Shown here piece after piece: positions 629-13,715 of a DNA stretch of 30,219 nucleotides. The stretch spans positions 1 through 30,219 of the IMG/VR virus record IMGVR_UViG_2563366798_000006; one strand, written 5' to 3'. Source of the DNA: a virus. Lineage: Duplodnaviria > Heunggongvirae > Uroviricota > Caudoviricetes. The translations under genes were made by a program, and so were the position numbers. How positions within the stretch are numbered: the first letter of the stretch is position 1; each line of letters starts with the position of its first letter. Under the pieces are notes generated by a model, which had not been told where the DNA came from, did not search any database, and saw only the letters and a program-made list of their open reading frames with translations.

Positions 629-900
629 GTATTCGTATTGAAATTGGCGAACGTTATGTCGTTACCAGTGACAGCTTTCAGTTTATTCTCCACGAGAAAA
701 AGAGAGCGGAAAGCGGTAAAAACGCCGGTCAGGAATGGCTGGCGGTGGTTGGTTATTACCCGAAATTAAGCCAGCTCGTTTCCGGCCTGATGCATCACGA
801 TATTCTGACCGGAAGCGCAAAATCTTTTGCTGATTTAAACGCGCAGGTTGAGCAACTCAGCAAGCGTTGTTCAGAGGCTTTTGGCTCATATGGCCGTTAA
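625..900 (+). CDS. P2-family early hypothetical protein (orf83-like position)
   Basis: GGAGA SD 5 nt upstream of ATG 625. Start overlaps the preceding stop and its 3' end overlaps the gene A start. Confidence 0.5.
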   Translation: MSIRIEIGERYVVTSDSFQFILHEKKRAESGKNAGQEWLAVVGYYPKLSQLVSGLMHHDILTGSAKSFADLNAQVEQLSKRCSEAFGSYGR

Positions 901-3166
901 AGCCTCCGGGCGTTTTGTCCCTCCGTCAGCATTTGCCGCAGGCACCGGTAAGGCGTTTACCGGTGCTTATGCATGGAACGCGCCACGCGAGGCTGTCGGG
1001 CGCGAAAGACCTCTTACACGTGACGAGATGCGTCAGGTGCAAGGTGTTTTATCCACGATTAACCGCCTGCCTTACTTTTTGCGCTCGCTGTTTACTTCAC
1101 GCTATGACTACATCCGGCGCAATAAAAGCCCGGTACACGGGTTTTATTTCCTCACATCCACTTTTCAGCGTCGTTTATGGCCGCGCATTGAGCGCGTGAA
1201 TCAGCGCCATGAAATGAACACCGACGCGTCGTTACTGTTTCTGGCAGAGCGTGACCACTATGCGCGCCTGCCGGGAATGAATGACAAGGAGCTGAAAAAA
1301 TTTGCCGCCCGTATCTCATCGCAGCTTTTCATGATGTATGAGGAACTCAGCGATGCCTGGGTGGATGCGCATGGCGAAAAAGAATCGCTGTTTACGGATG
1401 AGGCGCAGGCTCACCTCTATGGTCATGTTGCTGGCGCTGCACGTGCTTTCAATATTTCCCCGCTCTACTGGAAAAAATACCGTAAAGGACAGATGACCAC
1501 GAGGCAGGCATATTCTGCCATTGCCCGTCTGTTTAACGATGAGTGGTGGACTCATCAGCTTAAAGGCCAGCGTATGCGCTGGCATGAGGCGTTACTGATC
1601 GCTGTCGGGGAGGTCAATAAAGACCGTTCTCCTTATGCCAGTAAACATGCCATTCGTGATGTGCGTGCACGCCGCCAGGCAAATCTGGAATTTCTTAAAT
1701 CGTGTGACCTTGAAAACAGGGAAACCGGCGAGCGCATCGACCTTATCAGTAAGGTGATGGGCAGTATTTCTAATCCTGAAATTCGCCGGATGGAGCTGAT
1801 GAACACCATCGCCGGTATTGAGCGTTACGCCGCCGCAGAGGGTGATGTGGGGATGTTTATCACGCTGACCGCGCCGTCAAAGTATCACCCGACACGTCAG
1901 GTTGGAAAAGGCGAAAATAAAACCGTCCAGCTTAATCACGGCTGGAACGATGAGGCATTTAATCCAAAGGATGCGCAGCGTTATCTCTGCCGTATCTGGA
2001 GCCTGATGCGCACGGCATTCAAGGATAATGATTTACAGGTCTACGGTTTGCGAGTCGTCGAGCCACACCACGACGGAACGCCGCACTGGCATATGATGCT
2101 TTTTTGTAATCCACGCCAGCGTAACCAGATTATCGAAATCATGCGTCGCTATGCGCTCAAAGAGGATGGCGACGAAAGAGGAGCCGCGCGAAACCGTTTT
2201 CAGGCAAAACACCTTAACCGGGGCGGTGCTGCGGGATATATCGCGAAATACATTTCAAAAAATATCGACGGCTATGCACTGGATGGTCAGCTCGATAACG
2301 ATACCGGCAGACCGCTGAAAGATACTGCGGCGGCTGTTACCGCATGGGCGTCAACGTGGCGCATCCCGCAATTTAAAACGGTTGGCCTGCCGACAATGGG
2401 AGCTTACCGTGAGCTACGTAAATTGCCTCGCGGCGTCAGTATTGCTGATGAGTTTGACGAACGCGTCGAGGCTGCTCGCGCTGCCGCAGACAGTGGTGAT
2501 TTTGCGTTGTATATCAGCGCGCAGGGCGGGGCAAATGTCCCGCGCGATTGTCAGACTGTCAGGGTCGCCCGTAGCCCGTCGGATGACGTTAACGAGTACG
2601 AGGAAGAAGTCGAGAGAGTGGTCGGCATTTACGCGCCGCATCTCGGCGCGCGTCATATTCATATCACCAGAACGACGGACTGGCGCATTGTGCCGAAAGT
2701 TCCGGTCGTTGAGCCTTTGACTTTAAAAAGCGGCATCGCCGCGCCTCGGAGTCCTGTCAATAACTGTGGAAAGCTCACCGGCGGTAATACTTCGTTACCG
2801 GCCCCCTCGCCTTCTGAGCACGCCGCAGCAGTGCTTAATCTGGTTGATGACGGTGTTATCGAATGGAATGACCCGGAGGTCGTGAGGACGCTCAGGGGTG
2901 CATTAAAACACGGCCTGAAAATACCAAATCGTCAGCAAAGAAACGGAAGCCCGTTAAAACCACATGAAATAGCACCGTCGGCCAGGCTGACCCGGTCGGA
3001 ACGATTGCAAATTACCCGTATCCGCGTTGATCTCGCTCAGAACGGTATCAGGCCGCAACGATGGGAGCTTGAGGCGCTGGCGCGTGGCGCGACCGTAAAT
3101 TATGACGGGAAACCTTTCACTTATCAGGTCGCTGATGATTGGCCGGGATTTTTGTTACCCATTTGA
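890..3166 (+). CDS. A: Rolling-circle replication initiator protein A (HUH endonuclease)
   Basis: Product contains PHWHMMLF (HUH-type His motif) and GYIAKYISK (paired catalytic tyrosines Y-x3-Y), as in P2 gpA. Start placed at ATG 890 (MAVKASGRF...); the ORF track's 848 is a TTG. Confidence 0.88.
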   Translation: MAVKASGRFVPPSAFAAGTGKAFTGAYAWNAPREAVGRERPLTRDEMRQVQGVLSTINRLPYFLRSLFTSRYDYIRRNKSPVHGFYFLTSTFQRRLWPRIERVNQRHEMNTDASLLFLAERDHYARLPGMNDKELKKFAARISSQLFMMYEELSDAWVDAHGEKESLFTDEAQAHLYGHVAGAARAFNISPLYWKKYRKGQMTTRQAYSAIARLFNDEWWTHQLKGQRMRWHEALLIAVGEVNKDRSPYASKHAIRDVRARRQANLEFLKSCDLENRETGERIDLISKVMGSISNPEIRRMELMNTIAGIERYAAAEGDVGMFITLTAPSKYHPTRQVGKGENKTVQLNHGWNDEAFNPKDAQRYLCRIWSLMRTAFKDNDLQVYGLRVVEPHHDGTPHWHMMLFCNPRQRNQIIEIMRRYALKEDGDERGAARNRFQAKHLNRGGAAGYIAKYISKNIDGYALDGQLDNDTGRPLKDTAAAVTAWASTWRIPQFKTVGLPTMGAYRELRKLPRGVSIADEFDERVEAARAAADSGDFALYISAQGGANVPRDCQTVRVARSPSDDVNEYEEEVERVVGIYAPHLGARHIHITRTTDWRIVPKVPVVEPLTLKSGIAAPRSPVNNCGKLTGGNTSLPAPSPSEHAAAVLNLVDDGVIEWNDPEVVRTLRGALKHGLKIPNRQQRNGSPLKPHEIAPSARLTRSERLQITRIRVDLAQNGIRPQRWELEALARGATVNYDGKPFTYQVADDWPGFLLPI

Positions 3167-3426
3167 GTAAAAATACAGCGTGATTTTATATGTCTTTGAA
3201 TGGATTATGCGAAGCACCTCTAAGGTAGATGAGGAGCAATAGCGTGTTGAATCAGAAGGCTAAATTGTATTGAATCGTTAGCATGTAATTGAAGGCAGCT
3301 ATTTGATTCGAGTCATAAAAGAGCATCTATTTCGGTTAATAAAACCATTGCGAGTGACTTTATGTCGAAGCATAATTCATCTCGAGCGAAGTCTTGCTAG
3401 TCTTTCATCGGATTGATGACGGGCGC

Positions 3427-3456
3427 AAAAAAACCACCCTGGCAGGTGGTTTTTTT
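3427..3456. terminator. Bidirectional intrinsic terminator (A-tract / GC stem / T-tract)
   Basis: AAAAAAACCACC-CTGGCA-GGTGGTTTTTTT: 6-bp GC-rich stem ACCACC/GGTGGT flanked by A7 and T7 runs, so it can terminate transcripts on both strands. Confidence 0.6.
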
Positions 3457-3468
3457 GTTTGAAGCATA

Positions 3469-3582
3469 CTAAAGAAAAATACTTACATGGATATTACTGA
3501 CGTTTACTGACAAACCACTCGGACTACCATATGGATAGCCAAAGAGGGCCAGAACGAGAATGCAGTAATAGCACTTCTTCAT
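3469..3582 (-). CDS. Candidate small ORF (37 aa, MKKCYYCILVLALFGYPYGSPSGLSVNVSNIHVSIFL)
   Basis: Minus-strand ATG at 3582-3580 preceded by a perfect AGGAGG SD (spacer CGAT). Stop TAG at 3471-3469, 12 nt before the terminator hairpin. Hydrophobic N-terminus. Not in the ORF track because it is under 60 aa. Confidence 0.25.
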   Translation of the reverse strand: MKKCYYCILVLALFGYPYGSPSGLSVNVSNIHVSIFL

Positions 3583-4238
3583 ATCGCCTCCTGTAAGCAG
3601 AGGGCAATTTCCGCCGATATATGCGCTTCTAAGGCGGAGTGACTATTGAGCGAAGTCTTGCCCTGAAATAATGCTCTGTTTAAACGCAAAGTGATCTGGC
3701 ATATCACTGAACAGAGAACCTGAACAACACAACATATAGTATGTCGTTGTTTCTGGTTGCATTTTATGTTGTGTAATACTGGTTTTGCATCAAGGATGTT
3801 TGAGCTTTTTTTGATATAGCTCAAAGTAAAAAGCAGAGACTACGGATGATAAGGTCTTGAAAGCAATGTAAATTTTTTAAAGTTGTGAGTGGCTAGAAAT
3901 GCACAGTTTCAATATGGCGGATTTAAACAAGTAATTAAAAATAGCGCCATAAATTCCAATAAAATCATTATGTTGCGTTTTCTGTGGAAACTGCGGTGAC
4001 TCTGAAATTTTCTTTTAGTGTCGCTGAGGTTTAACAACTCGCTGCGCAAGTAGTTAGTGTTTTTTTAACTCAATATCCTGATTTATAAGGTTTTTTATAA
4101 ATCGTGGGCTGATTGCGCGTATTCATCTCGTGTTATCAGCAAAGATAAGCGCTATATGCAAAACTGAATGCATATATGATGTCGAAAATGTTATGGGAAA
4201 ACGTGGATTAGTGTTATAGTAATGGCTGAAAAACAGCC

Positions 4239-4267
4239 TTGACATAAAATAACAACTGTGATATGGC
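4239..4267 (+). promoter_or_regulatory. Putative sigma70 promoter for the ImmA-like gene
   Basis: TTGACA (4239-4244), 17-bp spacer, then TGaTATGGC (TG at 4259-4260, hexamer 4262-4267), about 37 bp upstream of the ATG. The -10 is imperfect. Confidence 0.35.
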
Positions 4268-4303
4268 TGTGCATACTTAACTTTTTTAACGTAGGAGGCA
4301 ACC

Positions 4304-4789: not shown

Positions 4790-4817
4790 TTAGCCTTTAA
4801 CTTTTAACCTGTTTAAA

Positions 4818-4855
4818 ATCACCTTTACGTTTGTACATGTAAGGGTGATTTTTTT
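4818..4855 (+). terminator. Strong intrinsic terminator / attenuator hairpin after the ImmA-like gene
   Basis: 11-bp stem ATCACCTTTAC / GTAAGGGTGAT (10 Watson-Crick pairs plus one G-U), 10-nt loop, followed directly by a T run to 4855. The right arm contains the AAGGGTGA SD of the downstream ORF, whose ATG is at 4856. Confidence 0.55.
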
Positions 4856-5455
4856 ATGGCTGATATTGATTTATCTGGACAGTCCCCAGAGCAAGGAACC
4901 ACTCCTAAGGGCGATTTAGATCCTGATATCCTTATAAGGCGAGATCGACGCGATGGTATAGAGCGTAGAAGTATGCGATTAGTGCTCTCTGCCGTTGTGC
5001 TTTGTTTTGCTTGTACATTTCTATGGCAGGGGCTTAACTTTGCTTTGGCTGTTGGAAATGGCTTGCTGGAAGCGAAAAGCAGTATTGCCACAGCGATAAC
5101 ACAAAAAGTAGATGCACAAACTTGTGTTTCAGCAGAAAAATGTTCTGCTTTATCTGCGGATCCGAAGATGGCTGATGAGAGGATAACACCATCTTCAGAC
5201 ACTAATAAAGTTAGAAAATCTATTTCTGGTTTATCCACCGATTGGTTATCGGCCAGTTCTCTAATAGCTATTGTTGCATTCATCCTTGGTGTGGGTTTAA
5301 CTTTGCTTTTGACTCTTCTTAAATCAGCATTTCAACACCCGACAGATAAAGACTTTAGAACAAAGTCGACATCTAATACTATTGAGTTGGCCACGCCAAT
5401 CAGTGAATTAATAATTGGTGTTCTGAATATAATTAAAGACAAACTATCTAAGTAA
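4856..5455 (+). CDS. Small membrane protein with two predicted transmembrane helices
   Basis: 199-aa product: charged N-terminus (RRDRRDGIERR), helix LVLSAVVLCFACTFLWQGLNFALAV, soluble segment, second helix LIAIVAFILGVGLTLLLTLL, amphipathic C-terminus. Its own terminator lies about 40 nt downstream. The start is sequestered in the upstream hairpin, so expression is uncertain. Confidence 0.5.
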   Translation: MADIDLSGQSPEQGTTPKGDLDPDILIRRDRRDGIERRSMRLVLSAVVLCFACTFLWQGLNFALAVGNGLLEAKSSIATAITQKVDAQTCVSAEKCSALSADPKMADERITPSSDTNKVRKSISGLSTDWLSASSLIAIVAFILGVGLTLLLTLLKSAFQHPTDKDFRTKSTSNTIELATPISELIIGVLNIIKDKLSK

Positions 5456-5496
5456 AGCATTAGTTGTGATTTTTTATTGGTTTTAGTGATAATACA

Positions 5497-5530
5497 TCTC
5501 CAGTACTTATTGTTACTGGAGAGTATTTTT
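5497..5530 (+). terminator. Intrinsic terminator after the membrane-protein ORF
   Basis: 9-bp stem TCTCCAGTA / TACTGGAGA (5497-5505 / 5514-5522), 8-nt loop, then GTATTTTT. It sits between the convergent gene ends at 5455 and 5538. Confidence 0.45.
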
Positions 5531-5537
5531 AGTCGTT

Positions 5538-6479
5538 TTATATTTTTAATGTTAGTGAATGATATTCACGAGAGTTCACGTTCGATGTGATGTAATCGGG
5601 GGCGTTAACACCAAGAATCGCAACGAGCAATCGGCAAATTAAAGCCTGCATTTGTTGTAATATGTCATCTCCATATTGATAATTGTTAATAGTGGTAAAG
5701 CCAAGTGGTTGACCATGAAACATAGCTTCATGAAAGTTTTCATTGCGGATGTTTGTAATGTTTTTTTTGCCTGTAACCCATGATGGTCGTGGTATGCCAT
5801 AAGTTTTGCAGATCCACTTCAAGCGCCTGGAGTGATTTAGAGTCTTTTCTGTACACTTGTTCTTTTCTGCCCATGTTAAAGCAAAGCAACTATCCAGTGC
5901 CATATAAAGATACTGGAATTTTTCGAAGCTAAGGTATTGTGGGTTTTGGGATAAAAATAGTGCATGCACTATTGCTGCTATATTTATTGGTGCGTGTTTG
6001 GTTTTTTTCTCGCTAGACATGTATTTGAGTGCTAATTCTATAACCTCTTTTTCAGAACACTTGACCAGAATAAAGTCAGTTAATTTGCTGGGTTTTATTG
6101 GGGTTGCGTCTAAAAAACCGGCATCAGTAGTTGTTAATCTTATCCCTTTGAAAAAAGACAGACACCACACAGCAAAATTGAGAGTTTCTAGTGAAGATGT
6201 ATTTTTTAATTTTAGTGAGTGTGTTTTGGGTAAGCCAAATACTCGTTGGCTAAAAGGCATTGTGGATATGCCTCCATTGAGGTTATATACTTCTTGGTTT
6301 CCTGGGTATATCCAACCGTTAATAACATTTCTGTGATTGTTTATAAGATTTGTTTTTTCCGCTAGACCGGGTAAAGTAAGTAAAGAAAAATCATCAGTTT
6401 CAACGTTAACCTCTACTGGATAGTATCCAAACTCAGCTTCAATATCATTGGATTGCTGTTCGTCAACTTTACCTTGCAT
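5538..6479 (-). CDS. Hypothetical 313-aa cargo protein; candidate HEPN-like (R-N-x3-H) abortive-infection protein
   Basis: Minus-strand ATG at 6479-6477 with GGAG SD 6 nt upstream. AT-rich. Product contains IRNENFHEAMF, which fits the HEPN R-x4-6-H motif. No Walker or other motif recognised. Confidence 0.6.
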   Translation of the reverse strand: MQGKVDEQQSNDIEAEFGYYPVEVNVETDDFSLLTLPGLAEKTNLINNHRNVINGWIYPGNQEVYNLNGGISTMPFSQRVFGLPKTHSLKLKNTSSLETLNFAVWCLSFFKGIRLTTTDAGFLDATPIKPSKLTDFILVKCSEKEVIELALKYMSSEKKTKHAPINIAAIVHALFLSQNPQYLSFEKFQYLYMALDSCFALTWAEKNKCTEKTLNHSRRLKWICKTYGIPRPSWVTGKKNITNIRNENFHEAMFHGQPLGFTTINNYQYGDDILQQMQALICRLLVAILGVNAPDYITSNVNSREYHSLTLKI

Positions 6480-6904: not shown

Positions 6905-7939
6905 TCAGCCGTTGTCAGTGTCCAGTGAGTAGTTTTTAAAGCGGATGACCTCCTGATCGAGCCAGCCGTTTATCTCGCGGATCCTGTCCTGTAACGGGAT
7001 AAGCTCATTGCGGACAAAGACCTTTGCCACTTTCTCAATATCTCCCAGCGACCCGACGTTCTCCGGCTTGCCGCCCATCAACTGAAAGGGGATGCGGTGT
7101 GCGTCCAGCAGGTCAGCGGCGCTGGCTTTTTTGATATTAAAAAAATCGTCCTTCGTCGCCACTTCACTGAGGGGGATAATTTTAATGCCGTCGGCTTTCC
7201 CCTGCGGGGCATAGAGAAACAGATTTTTAAAGTTATTGCGGCCTTTCGACTTAACCATGTTTTCGCGAAGCATTTCGATATCGTTGCGATCCTGCACGGC
7301 ATCGGTGACGTACATGATGTATCCGGCATGTGCGCCATTTTCGTAATACTTGCGGCGGAACAGCGTGGCCGACTCATTCAGCCAGGCAGAGTTAAGGGCG
7401 CTGAGATATTCCGGCAGGCCGTACAGCTCCTGATTAATATCCGGCTCCAGCAGGTGAAACACGGAGCCGGGCGCGAAGGCTGTCGGCTCGTTGAAGGACG
7501 GCACCCACCAGTAAACATCCTCTTCCACACCACGGCGGGTATATTTTGCCGGTGAGGTTTCCAGTCTGATGACCTTACCGGTGGTGCTGTAACGCTTTTC
7601 CAGAAACGCATTACCGAACACCAGAAAATCCAGCACAAAGCGGCTGAAATCCTGCTGGGAAAGCCACGGATGCGGGATAAATGTCGAGGCCAGAATATTA
7701 CGTTTGACGTAAATCGGGGAGCTGTGATGCACGGCAGCACGCAGGCTTTTTGCCAGACCGGTAAAGCTGACCGGTGGCTCATACCATCTGCCGTTACTGA
7801 TGCACTCAACGTAATCCAGAATGTCACGGCGGTCGAGTACCGGCACCGGCTCACCAAAGGTGAATGCCTCCATTTTCGGGGCGCTGGCGGTCATTTTTTT
7901 TGCCGCAGGTTGCGGTGTTTTCCCTTTTTTCTTGCTCAT
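6905..7939 (-). CDS. Q: Portal (capsid portal) protein Q
   Basis: 344-aa product at the size and position of P2 gpQ, first gene after cos on the minus strand. Start overlaps the P stop (ATGA). Confidence 0.88.
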   Translation of the reverse strand: MSKKKGKTPQPAAKKMTASAPKMEAFTFGEPVPVLDRRDILDYVECISNGRWYEPPVSFTGLAKSLRAAVHHSSPIYVKRNILASTFIPHPWLSQQDFSRFVLDFLVFGNAFLEKRYSTTGKVIRLETSPAKYTRRGVEEDVYWWVPSFNEPTAFAPGSVFHLLEPDINQELYGLPEYLSALNSAWLNESATLFRRKYYENGAHAGYIMYVTDAVQDRNDIEMLRENMVKSKGRNNFKNLFLYAPQGKADGIKIIPLSEVATKDDFFNIKKASAADLLDAHRIPFQLMGGKPENVGSLGDIEKVAKVFVRNELIPLQDRIREINGWLDQEVIRFKNYSLDTDNG

Positions 7940-13433: not shown

Positions 13434-13715
13434 ATGACAGCAGAAGAAAAAAGCGTCCTGTCGCTTTTCATGATTGGGGTGCTGATTGTTGTCGGCAAGG
13501 TGCTTGCCGGTGGTGAACCCATCACCCCGCGTCTGTTTATCGGGCGCATGTTGCTCGGTGGTTTTGTCTCGATGGTTGCCGGTGTTGTTCTGGTGCAGTT
13601 TCCTGACCTGTCACTGCCTGCGGTGTGCGGCATCGGCTCCATGCTGGGTATCGCCGGTTATCAGGTAATTGAGATTGCCATTCAGCGCCGCTTTAAGGGC
13701 AGGGGGAAACAGTAA
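13434..13715 (+). CDS. Y: Holin Y
   Basis: 93 aa with three hydrophobic helices, directly upstream of the endolysin. Confidence 0.8.
   Translation: MTAEEKSVLSLFMIGVLIVVGKVLAGGEPITPRLFIGRMLLGGFVSMVAGVVLVQFPDLSLPAVCGIGSMLGIAGYQVIEIAIQRRFKGRGKQ

Follow-up and report, generated by a model that had tools for sequence, protein, structure and literature searches.

Why should a prophage enclose the ribosome-binding site (RBS) of one of its genes in a terminator-like hairpin, and what might such a gene be for? The question is raised by a P2-like Escherichia coli prophage, IMG/VR record IMGVR_UViG_2563366798_000006 (30,219 nucleotides (nt), called the window here; coordinates refer to it), in which a gene for a 199-residue protein with two transmembrane (TM) segments begins directly after such a hairpin. 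A sequence-only reading of this locus had proposed that the hairpin throttles both transcription into the membrane gene and its translation, and had taken the layout as the mark of a repressed toxic effector. We found that the hairpin is conserved with covarying stem pairs, that the membrane gene and an upstream gene for an M78-family metallopeptidase are both under purifying selection, and that the two genes occur together. With somewhat more belief than doubt, we propose that the hairpin acts as a leaky terminator and RBS lock, keeping the membrane protein much scarcer than the peptidase, and that the pair is a toxin/antitoxin or abortive-infection module resembling RosmerTA.

A hairpin that contains a Shine-Dalgarno sequence

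The hairpin spans 4815-4852 on the plus strand, with arms at 4815-4830 (AAAATCACCTTTACGT) and 4837-4852 (ATGTAAGGGTGATTTT) around a loop at 4831-4836; the right arm is followed by TTT and then by the ATG at 4856. It had been described as an 11-bp hairpin at 4818-4849. The hairpin is indeed present, and those limits proved to be the core of a stem of 16 pairs (4 G-C, 2 G-U). Its right arm is, as had been claimed, the gene's own Shine-Dalgarno (SD) sequence: the sole purine-rich, SD-like stretch before the ATG is AAGGGTGAT at 4841-4849, wholly within the 3' arm. The start codon also lies directly after the T run, since the seven T at 4849-4855 abut it. The hairpin alone has a folding energy of -17.9 kcal/mol, and the fold of 4790-4880 reaches -23.6 kcal/mol (z = -3.69 against dinucleotide shuffles, 1 of 200 being as good). 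The window has a single copy of the motif AATCACC-N(10-24)-GGTGATTTTT, and none of 100 shuffles contains it.

This arrangement makes the start of the membrane gene costly to open. Opening positions -15 to +5 requires 23.4 kcal/mol, compared with 5.6 kcal/mol for the upstream peptidase gene and a median of 9.0 kcal/mol over the 32 long open reading frames (ORFs) of the window. The membrane gene is the extreme value of this set; the only equal cost belongs to a mechanically picked TTG start, which is not the terminase start annotated by the Prokaryotic Genome Annotation Pipeline (PGAP). The SD is base-paired in the most stable fold and its pairing is kept by compensatory change, as in RBS-sequestering elements, and the stable 16-pair stem followed by U7 has the form of an intrinsic terminator.

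The same geometry of hairpin, T run and ATG was found in 14 of the first 15 distinct homologous loci, and Aeromonas and Klebsiella relatives carry it as well. The intergenic gap is 66 nt in the window and 67-74 nt in the other hairpin-bearing loci. Among these loci there are at least five different stem sequences: that of the window (AAAATCACCTTTACG), two further variants (CACCATTAT and CACCATCAT), the Vibrio arms (AAGCCCTCA/TGAGGGCTT) and the arms shared by Aeromonas, Klebsiella and locus L028 (AAAGCCACC/GGTGGCTTT). At the same place in the 3' arm, all hairpin-bearing loci have an SD-like GGTGA, GGTGG or GAGGG. An alignment of 14 sequences revealed that 5 of the 13 stem pairs have changed on both sides while 92% of the cells pair; the covariation score was reached by 0 of 500 shuffles, and slid registers pair at 31-69%. 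Across the loci, opening of the RBS costs 14-24 kcal/mol for the membrane gene versus 5-9 kcal/mol for the peptidase gene. The 3' T run has 5-8 T in all hairpin-bearing loci except L029 (CTTATT) and the 5' A run only 2-4 A, which fits a terminator on the plus strand and speaks against a DNA operator. This anatomy is kept across loci whose peptidases are only 45% identical. The comparison indicates that the layout is more than chance, and the retention of the SD, the U run and their contact with the ATG in differing stems supports the proposal that the hairpin would throttle both transcription into the membrane gene and its translation.

Several other roles for the hairpin were considered and set aside. 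There is no GGA in a loop as in the CsrA site of the ColE7 operon, the stem is too stable for an RNA thermometer and the duplex is too short for an RNase III site. The minus strand offers only 3-4 U for an antisense RNA ending at the hairpin, and no minus-strand promoter-like site was found in 4856-5480. Unwinding by a ribosome that terminates on the peptidase gene was also rejected, the stop codon lying 25 nt upstream of the stem. A search of Rfam gave no family anywhere in the window.

The layout is not confined to this pair of genes. An exact-pattern scan of IMG/VR for AATCACC-N(10-24)-GGTGATTTTTTTATG returned 25 contigs, about ten of which carry the peptidase/TM module. In the others the pattern precedes a 179-residue endolysin gene (phrog_181, 8e-55), a 500-residue tail or tape-measure-like gene and small genes of unknown function. 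These matches suggest that a terminator hairpin embedding the SD of the next gene is a recurrent phage device for attenuating the downstream gene. An identical hairpin, AAAATCACCGTATAGGCAACTAGCGGTGATTTTTTTATG, lies between a tail-fibre-like ORF and the 179-residue endolysin gene in several unrelated viral contigs of IMG/VR: L042 (at 4080-4116), L045, L048, L056, L060 and L061. Similar hairpins precede unknown ORFs of 113-132 residues in L038, L046, L049, L053 and L057.

The membrane protein and its peptidase partner

The 199-residue ORF matches phrog_8096 end to end, and PGAP annotates it on the plus strand. The ratio of nonsynonymous to synonymous substitution rates (dN/dS) is 0.16-0.29 for the membrane gene at dS 0.2-1.3, and 0.11-0.17 for the codons upstream of an internal methionine, Met40. 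An N-terminal DLSG motif in this part is kept out to Aeromonas and Pseudomonas. These data indicate that the ORF is a real gene. They likewise place its start at the ATG at 4856 (WP_000763339, 199 residues) and not at Met40 (4973), because the codons before Met40 are under purifying selection and the DLSG motif is conserved. Met40 is used as the start in an older RefSeq entry (WP_024165494), in the published table of Rousset et al. and in several database homologues (144-168 residues). The sequence-only reading had allowed that the ORF might not be expressed, which the dN/dS values refute, or that an antisense ORF of 152 residues (4825-5283) might be the one translated. The existence of the antisense ORF is the only point in favour of the latter; it is 45-93 residues long in 12 of 13 homologous loci and so is not kept, while the plus-strand protein has homologues at 27-65% identity in many genera. 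We regard the idea that the plus-strand ORF is no gene, or that its antisense is translated instead, as hardly credible.

The two hydrophobic segments noted earlier were confirmed. The N-terminal tail, which includes the DLSG motif, is variable and rich in proline and glutamine, and leads into a basic stretch (7 lysines and arginines in residues 27-41). TM1 covers roughly residues 42-66. Next come a loop in which Cys90 and Cys96 are conserved, a TM2 that hardly varies (about 133-155; AFILGVGLTLLLTLLK) and, at the C-terminus, an amphipathic helix that is also conserved. The loop with its two cysteines agrees with a predicted periplasmic loop and an N-in/C-in topology. An AlphaFold2 (AF2) model, of modest confidence (predicted local distance difference test (pLDDT) 65), is a helical hairpin with helices at 23-89, 117-159 and 180-198. 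Homologues at 27-65% identity were found in Salmonella, Klebsiella, Citrobacter, Leclercia, Pectobacterium, Serratia, Enterobacter (on a plasmid) and Vibrio, and more distant ones in Aeromonas, Klebsiella and Pseudomonas aeruginosa. The family is small, with 55 cluster representatives among 1.84 billion in an exhaustive profile search.

Known families gave little further information. In Pfam, NCBIfam and PADLOC, the membrane protein and 25 homologues had only chance-level matches to TM models, and no fold in BFVD matched the AF2 model at E below 2. A scan of genome contigs with family patterns produced 80 pattern matches and no confirmed relative, the hydrophobic TM2 patterns being too unspecific. 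The suggestion that the protein is holin-like, if it means the phage's own lysis holin, was excluded: the prophage has a separate holin at 13434-13715 (phrog_175, 1.8e-46) and a spanin, the 199-residue protein sits in a cargo hotspot, and a holin Pfam match, at chance level, appeared in one homologue only.

The gene directly upstream encodes a protein of 161 residues that matches Peptidase_M78 (Pfam PF06114, 3.8e-21) and phrog_87. Its best PADLOC model is capP (1.1e-30, profile positions 8-153 of 242); many RmrA models match the peptidase region only (best 6.1e-17; profile positions about 146-292). The closest solved structure in the PDB is CapP (7t5t, 7.6e-7). Its HELGH motif, at residue 75, is followed downstream by glutamates in EANKFAAELLMP; the protein contains no cysteine, and it ends where CapP and IrrE continue into the GAF domain that forms a groove for single-stranded DNA (ssDNA). 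There was no Pfam match to a helix-turn-helix (HTH) domain in its 161 residues. It is therefore predicted to be a peptidase-only enzyme of the size of ImmA. Relatives of about 160 residues are abundant (283 clusters at E 1e-10 or better). The peptidase gene is likewise under purifying selection, with dN/dS of 0.03-0.08.

A Peptidase_M78 gene of 161-170 codons lies directly upstream, on the same strand, in every context fetched. Among these contexts are the P2 hotspots of E. coli and of Salmonella and two prophage ends, one in Klebsiella and one, belonging to another prophage, in Pectobacterium. The others are an Enterobacter plasmid, islands in Serratia and in Vibrio (the latter with recombinases on its flanks), a phage-like contig, and the Aeromonas and P. 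aeruginosa prophages described below. The identities of the two proteins co-vary (Pearson 0.95 over 136 locus pairs), and the membrane protein evolves faster, being 65% identical where the peptidase is 89% identical. At identities of at least 99.4%, the pair is present in 47 of 5,426 complete E. coli genomes, and it is found also in isolated P2-like phages. No HTH gene adjoins the pair in the loci with Pfam calls. This invariable partnership, which the sequence-only reading had not included, is, by analogy with RosmerTA, a stronger argument for a toxin-like effector than the hairpin.

Some of these loci have features of their own. In an Aeromonas Mu-like prophage (L031, 2419-4810) the module lies between mor and an endolysin gene (Glyco_hydro_108), another site of moron insertion, and in a sister Aeromonas locus (L030) IS66 follows the module instead. 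In a P. aeruginosa prophage the pair adjoins an upstream Peptidase_S24 gene, of the type that encodes CI/LexA-like repressors. The Serratia island (L008/L009, 7463-9246) carries a RosmerTA-like pair 1.8 kb downstream of the module, in which the gene for a 223-residue protein of unassigned family overlaps by 4 nt that for a 371-residue HTH_3 and Peptidase_M78 protein; two M78-based modules are present in this one island. In Salmonella Infantis CP148870.1 (L037, 3001-3354) the loss of 1 nt from a GGGG run shifts the peptidase frame after HELGHHVLG, leaving 117 residues without the third zinc ligand, with the 199-residue membrane gene and the 313-codon gene that neighbours the pair in the window intact. 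This frameshift may be a homopolymer sequencing error or a sign that loss of the peptidase is tolerated.

Known relatives and rival readings

The gene pair itself was already known, without an assigned function. Rousset et al. (2022, PMC9122126) list it in their Table S5B as P2-hotspot system 21, 'Peptidase_M78', with 148 occurrences and '2 TM in protein 2'. The listed sequences match the window, the peptidase identically and the TM protein from Met40; the portion of the catalogue available to us gives the pair no function and does not mention a hairpin. In their Table S2A a TA280 variant is cloned as pFR104, 'Peptidase + TM'. This variant is of the type of locus L004, its peptidase being 88% and its TM protein 58% identical to those of the window. 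The native upstream region was presumably cloned with it, because the start given for the insert corresponds to the end of gpA. The RefSeq accessions of the pair appeared in no main text searched, and a 2026 Nucleic Acids Research paper on P2/P4 hotspots did not mention a peptidase/TM pair by the terms sought. Four points appear to be new: the conservation of the proposed terminator/RBS lock, the correction of the start codon, how widely the module occurs, and the tested features that set it apart from RosmerTA, CapP and ImmA.

RosmerTA appears to be the closest functional class. It consists of an M78-peptidase antitoxin, RmrA, and a variable toxin, RmrT, and acts in phage defence (Millman et al. 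2022; Ernits et al. 2023); the RmrT of Gordonia phage Kita is a membrane-localised, depolarising toxin. As far as the available text of these papers goes, the module shares with RosmerTA a gene for an M78/ImmA-type peptidase next to a partner that varies between families and has no recognised fold, carriage by phages and defence contexts. The two-TM partner matches no PADLOC or Pfam model, and an intergenic terminator/RBS hairpin is not mentioned for RosmerTA in that text.

Other M78 proteins differ in what accompanies the peptidase. CapP has three domains (peptidase, HTH and a C-terminal GAF domain that forms the ssDNA groove), and CapP/CapH are ssDNA-activated regulators of immune operons. 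The window peptidase shares the HExxH zinc site and the fold family with CapP/CapH and IrrE/DdrO; unlike CapP it is without a GAF domain and without the cysteine switch (which is not universal), and the module has neither a CapH-like HTH partner gene nor a downstream immune operon. ImmA has about 160-170 residues, and like ImmA/ImmR the module contains a stand-alone, peptidase-only protein of this size on a mobile element; unlike ImmA/ImmR, no ImmR-like repressor is adjacent in any context, the partner is a membrane protein and the sole ImmR/CI-like candidate is the Peptidase_S24 gene in P. aeruginosa.

For the regulation, the ColE7 operon appears to be the closest precedent. In ColE7/ColE2 a T1 terminator separates cei from cel, the lethal lysis gene, and restricts read-through; in ColE7, CsrA also represses translation at the cel SD (Yang et al. 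2010). Both operons have a terminator or terminator-like hairpin between the cistrons, just upstream of the second gene, together with a paired or repressed SD. In ColE7, though, the SD lies beside the stem. Here it forms the 3' arm, the U run directly adjoins the AUG, and the genes of the two operons are not related.

How might the module work? We suggest that the two genes form a cargo operon transcribed from a promoter or promoters of its own at about 4212-4267. The hairpin and U7 would act as a leaky intrinsic terminator, most transcripts ending in the U run just before the AUG. The resulting short, peptidase-only mRNA would be stabilised by its protective 3' hairpin, and the minority of read-through transcripts would carry the membrane gene. 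On these the hairpin would serve as an RBS lock, its 3' arm being the SD. In the thermodynamic model of initiation used by RBS calculators, the rate scales with exp(-0.45 x deltaG). A difference of 10-18 kcal/mol would then mean initiation 100-fold to more than 1,000-fold weaker than at the peptidase gene, beyond the effect of termination, and the combined brakes would keep the membrane protein orders of magnitude below the peptidase. That a double brake is kept by selection suggests that the membrane protein is harmful above trace amounts, with the peptidase always in large excess as the protective or controlling partner. By analogy with RosmerTA, the module may be a toxin/antitoxin-type abortive-infection or exclusion device. 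Its location in the P2 hotspot and the presence of the RosmerTA-like pair near the Serratia module count in favour of this view.

Several observations weigh against the lock-and-antitoxin proposal. The hairpin is absent in L014 (30-nt gap) and in P. aeruginosa (13-nt gap and a 135-residue partner), which argues that the module can work without it. Its stem is AU-rich, with 4 G-C pairs only, where an intrinsic terminator has a G+C-rich stem, and a consensus terminator scan of the window did not list it, probably because four T pair with the 5' A run; by the rules of the tool, these four basal A-U pairs would count as stem and consume part of the T run. The same layout precedes endolysin and tail genes as well as small unknown ones, so the layout itself is no marker of a toxin and that part of the sequence-only reading gained no support in the form given; what speaks for a toxic effector is its peptidase partner and its place in the hotspot rather than the hairpin. 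As to the likeness to RosmerTA, RmrA, as described in the available text, has 360-400 residues and usually an N-terminal HTH (an architecture that is frequent, not universal), whereas the window protein has the M78 peptidase part only, in 161 residues. The Salmonella frameshift, if not a sequencing error, speaks against simple dependence on an antitoxin. Finally, the main text of Rousset et al. reports defence for three of eight additional P2 systems (DUF4238, a three-gene system and DprA+PRTase), from which we infer, the paper not being explicit, that the pFR104 variant had no detectable defence against the eight-phage panel. This outcome was obtained with a narrow phage panel and with the native lock in place.

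The conserved N-terminal tail allows a different role for the peptidase. It could be a sensor and activator that cleaves this cytoplasmic tail (DLSG...RRD..ERR) upon infection, licensing the membrane protein to oligomerise and depolarise the membrane while the hairpin sets the dose. Obligate pairing and co-divergence of the two proteins are consistent with this, as are the conservation of the N-terminal motif out to Aeromonas and Pseudomonas, the low dN/dS of the tail and the intact membrane gene in the genome with the frameshifted peptidase. Proteolysis-gated pore formers are, moreover, an established class (bacterial gasdermin, EACC1 and Pepco; Evans et al. 2025, preprint), and they too pair a protease gene with a small protein that is membrane-active (here by prediction) in defence contexts. 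But their proteases are sensor-fused serine or cysteine enzymes rather than a 161-residue M78 domain, their effectors are soluble pro-forms and there is no sequence relation. The peptidase also has neither the GAF domain nor the cysteine switch by which CapP and IrrE sense ssDNA, and a harmless latent pro-effector would need no such tight double lock. Proteolytic licensing is for these reasons unlikely in our judgement, though a serious contender. We give still less credence to a version in which the sensor-less peptidase processes the tail, either destroying or licensing the partner, and the supply of partner is gated by the hairpin until an infection cue unlocks it, whether by altering termination, by cleavage of the left arm in the RNA or by a transcription start inside the hairpin.

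The remaining readings give the hairpin or the pair a more ordinary task. The hairpin could merely be the terminator and 3' stabiliser of the peptidase mRNA, the membrane gene being expressed normally, either from a transcript that starts within the hairpin, and so has no left arm to cover the SD, or through easy opening of the AU-rich stem by ribosomes. A -10-like hexamer does lie at the base of the left arm in most loci (TAAAAT at 4814-4819; TAGAAT, TATAAA or CATAAA elsewhere), and compact terminator/SD overlaps precede ordinary phage genes. However, there is no -35 or properly spaced TG, the promoter scan is empty there, and the A run is equally well accounted for by its pairing with the U run. 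The SD is kept paired by compensatory changes, and a stem of -12 to -20 kcal/mol would greatly hinder initiation, which makes normal expression rather improbable. We are a little more doubtful still of a regulatory or exclusion device without a defensive or toxic role, in which an ImmA-like anti-repressor targets an HTH repressor encoded elsewhere and is combined with an inner-membrane protein of low copy number (an injection blocker or a signal receiver, for instance) that does harm only when overproduced. The ImmA-like architecture of the stand-alone peptidases, the CI/LexA-type gene before the P. aeruginosa pair, the lack of reported defence for the cloned variant and the two conserved cysteines in the predicted periplasmic loop would all fit such a device, but in the other contexts fetched the pair has no accompanying HTH gene, and the module is not confined to prophages, as it also occurs in islands and on a plasmid. 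Least plausible among these is that the inverted repeat acts in the DNA, as an operator for a dimeric regulator or a recombination site. Its outer half-sites (AAATCACC / GGTGATTT) are strongly conserved among Enterobacterales; yet the arms in Vibrio, Aeromonas, Klebsiella, L028 and L029 differ while keeping the pairing, the T run and the distance to the ATG, the inner stem positions covary, and the asymmetric T run and embedded SD have no rationale at the DNA level. We consider it very improbable.

The prophage locus and what the module may mean

The pair sits in the cargo hotspot between gpA and the portal gene, the position of tin and old in P2. In the window the gpA replication endonuclease gene occupies 848-3166, the portal gene 6905-7939 (minus strand) and the terminase gene starts from 7939 (minus strand); the cargo consists of the peptidase gene, the two-TM gene and a convergent gene for a 313-residue protein at 5538-6479 (minus strand). 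Conservation among enterobacterial loci extends for about 130 nt upstream of the peptidase gene, a region that contains two promoter-like elements in tandem and a strong AGGAGG; no regulator gene accompanies these elements. When 300 nt upstream of the peptidase gene were aligned for 14 loci, TGnTATAGT/TATATT was kept in the enterobacterial ones; this element was not found by the consensus promoter scan, which requires a -35. The TTGACA of the second element is conserved in close loci. Between 4304 and 4856 the scan found no consensus promoter. A hairpin downstream of the membrane gene (5497-5522) is probably common to it and the convergent gene and would mark the 3' end of the operon. The features are collected in the table.

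Table. Predicted and observed features of the peptidase/membrane-protein operon (window coordinates)
Feature	Position	Strand	Basis
Promoter-like element 1, extended -10 TGtTATAGT, putative	4212-4220	+	Alignment of 14 loci
Promoter-like element 2, putative: -35 TTGACA (4239-4244), 17-nt spacer, TGa and weak -10 TATGGC (4259-4267)	4239-4267	+	
Shine-Dalgarno AGGAGG of peptidase gene, accessible context	4293-4298	+	GTAGGAGGCxACCATG conserved; opening 5.6 kcal/mol
Stand-alone M78 (ImmA/IrrE-type) zinc metallopeptidase, 161 residues	4304-4789	+	Pfam, PADLOC, phrog_87, PDB, PGAP
AU-rich single-stranded spacer, peptidase stop to hairpin	4790-4814	+	Sequence
Terminator-like hairpin	4815-4852	+	Fold, conservation, covariation; unique in window
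SD-like AAGGGTGAT of membrane gene	4841-4849	+	Inside hairpin 3' arm
Seven-T run abutting start codon	4849-4855	+	Sequence
Two-TM membrane protein, 199 residues	4856-5455	+	ORF, PGAP coding sequence, phrog_8096, homologues
Bidirectional terminator-like hairpin, 9 bp, G+C-containing	5497-5522	both	Terminator scan

Between gpA and the cargo operon, PGAP annotates no gene in about 1.1 kb (3166-4200), where the ORFs are all short and on the minus strand; it is this stretch that the beginning of the pFR104 insert matches. A strong hairpin with a T run at about 3424-3458 (AAAAAAACCACCctggcaGGTGGTTTTTTT) is probably the terminator of the early operon. The convergent 313-residue protein (phrog_5937) has no match in Pfam. 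It contains an Rx4H motif (RNENFH at residue 245), a UniRef homologue with 46% identity is named 'Apea-like HEPN domain-containing protein', and there are hundreds of relatives in Enterobacterales, Aeromonas, Acinetobacter and Pseudomonas. Its gene is probably a separate, single-gene cargo and a candidate HEPN RNase. We rejected it as a third component of the module, given its absence from most peptidase/TM loci.

The gpA/portal hotspot of P2 is a proven source of anti-phage systems. Among the cargoes of this site in E. coli the pair ranks 21st by frequency (Rousset et al. 2022), and it has relatives throughout Enterobacterales, Vibrio, Aeromonas and Pseudomonas. The hairpin offers a reason why a test with native regulation may have given a null result, namely that the effector may hardly be expressed. 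Were the peptidase to act on its membrane partner, this would be the smallest known M78-controlled effector module and would help to explain the HTH-less relatives of RosmerTA, CapP and ImmA. Should the peptidase process the N-terminal tail, the pair would represent a new class of metallopeptidase-controlled membrane effectors in prophage hotspots, armed at the level of RNA.

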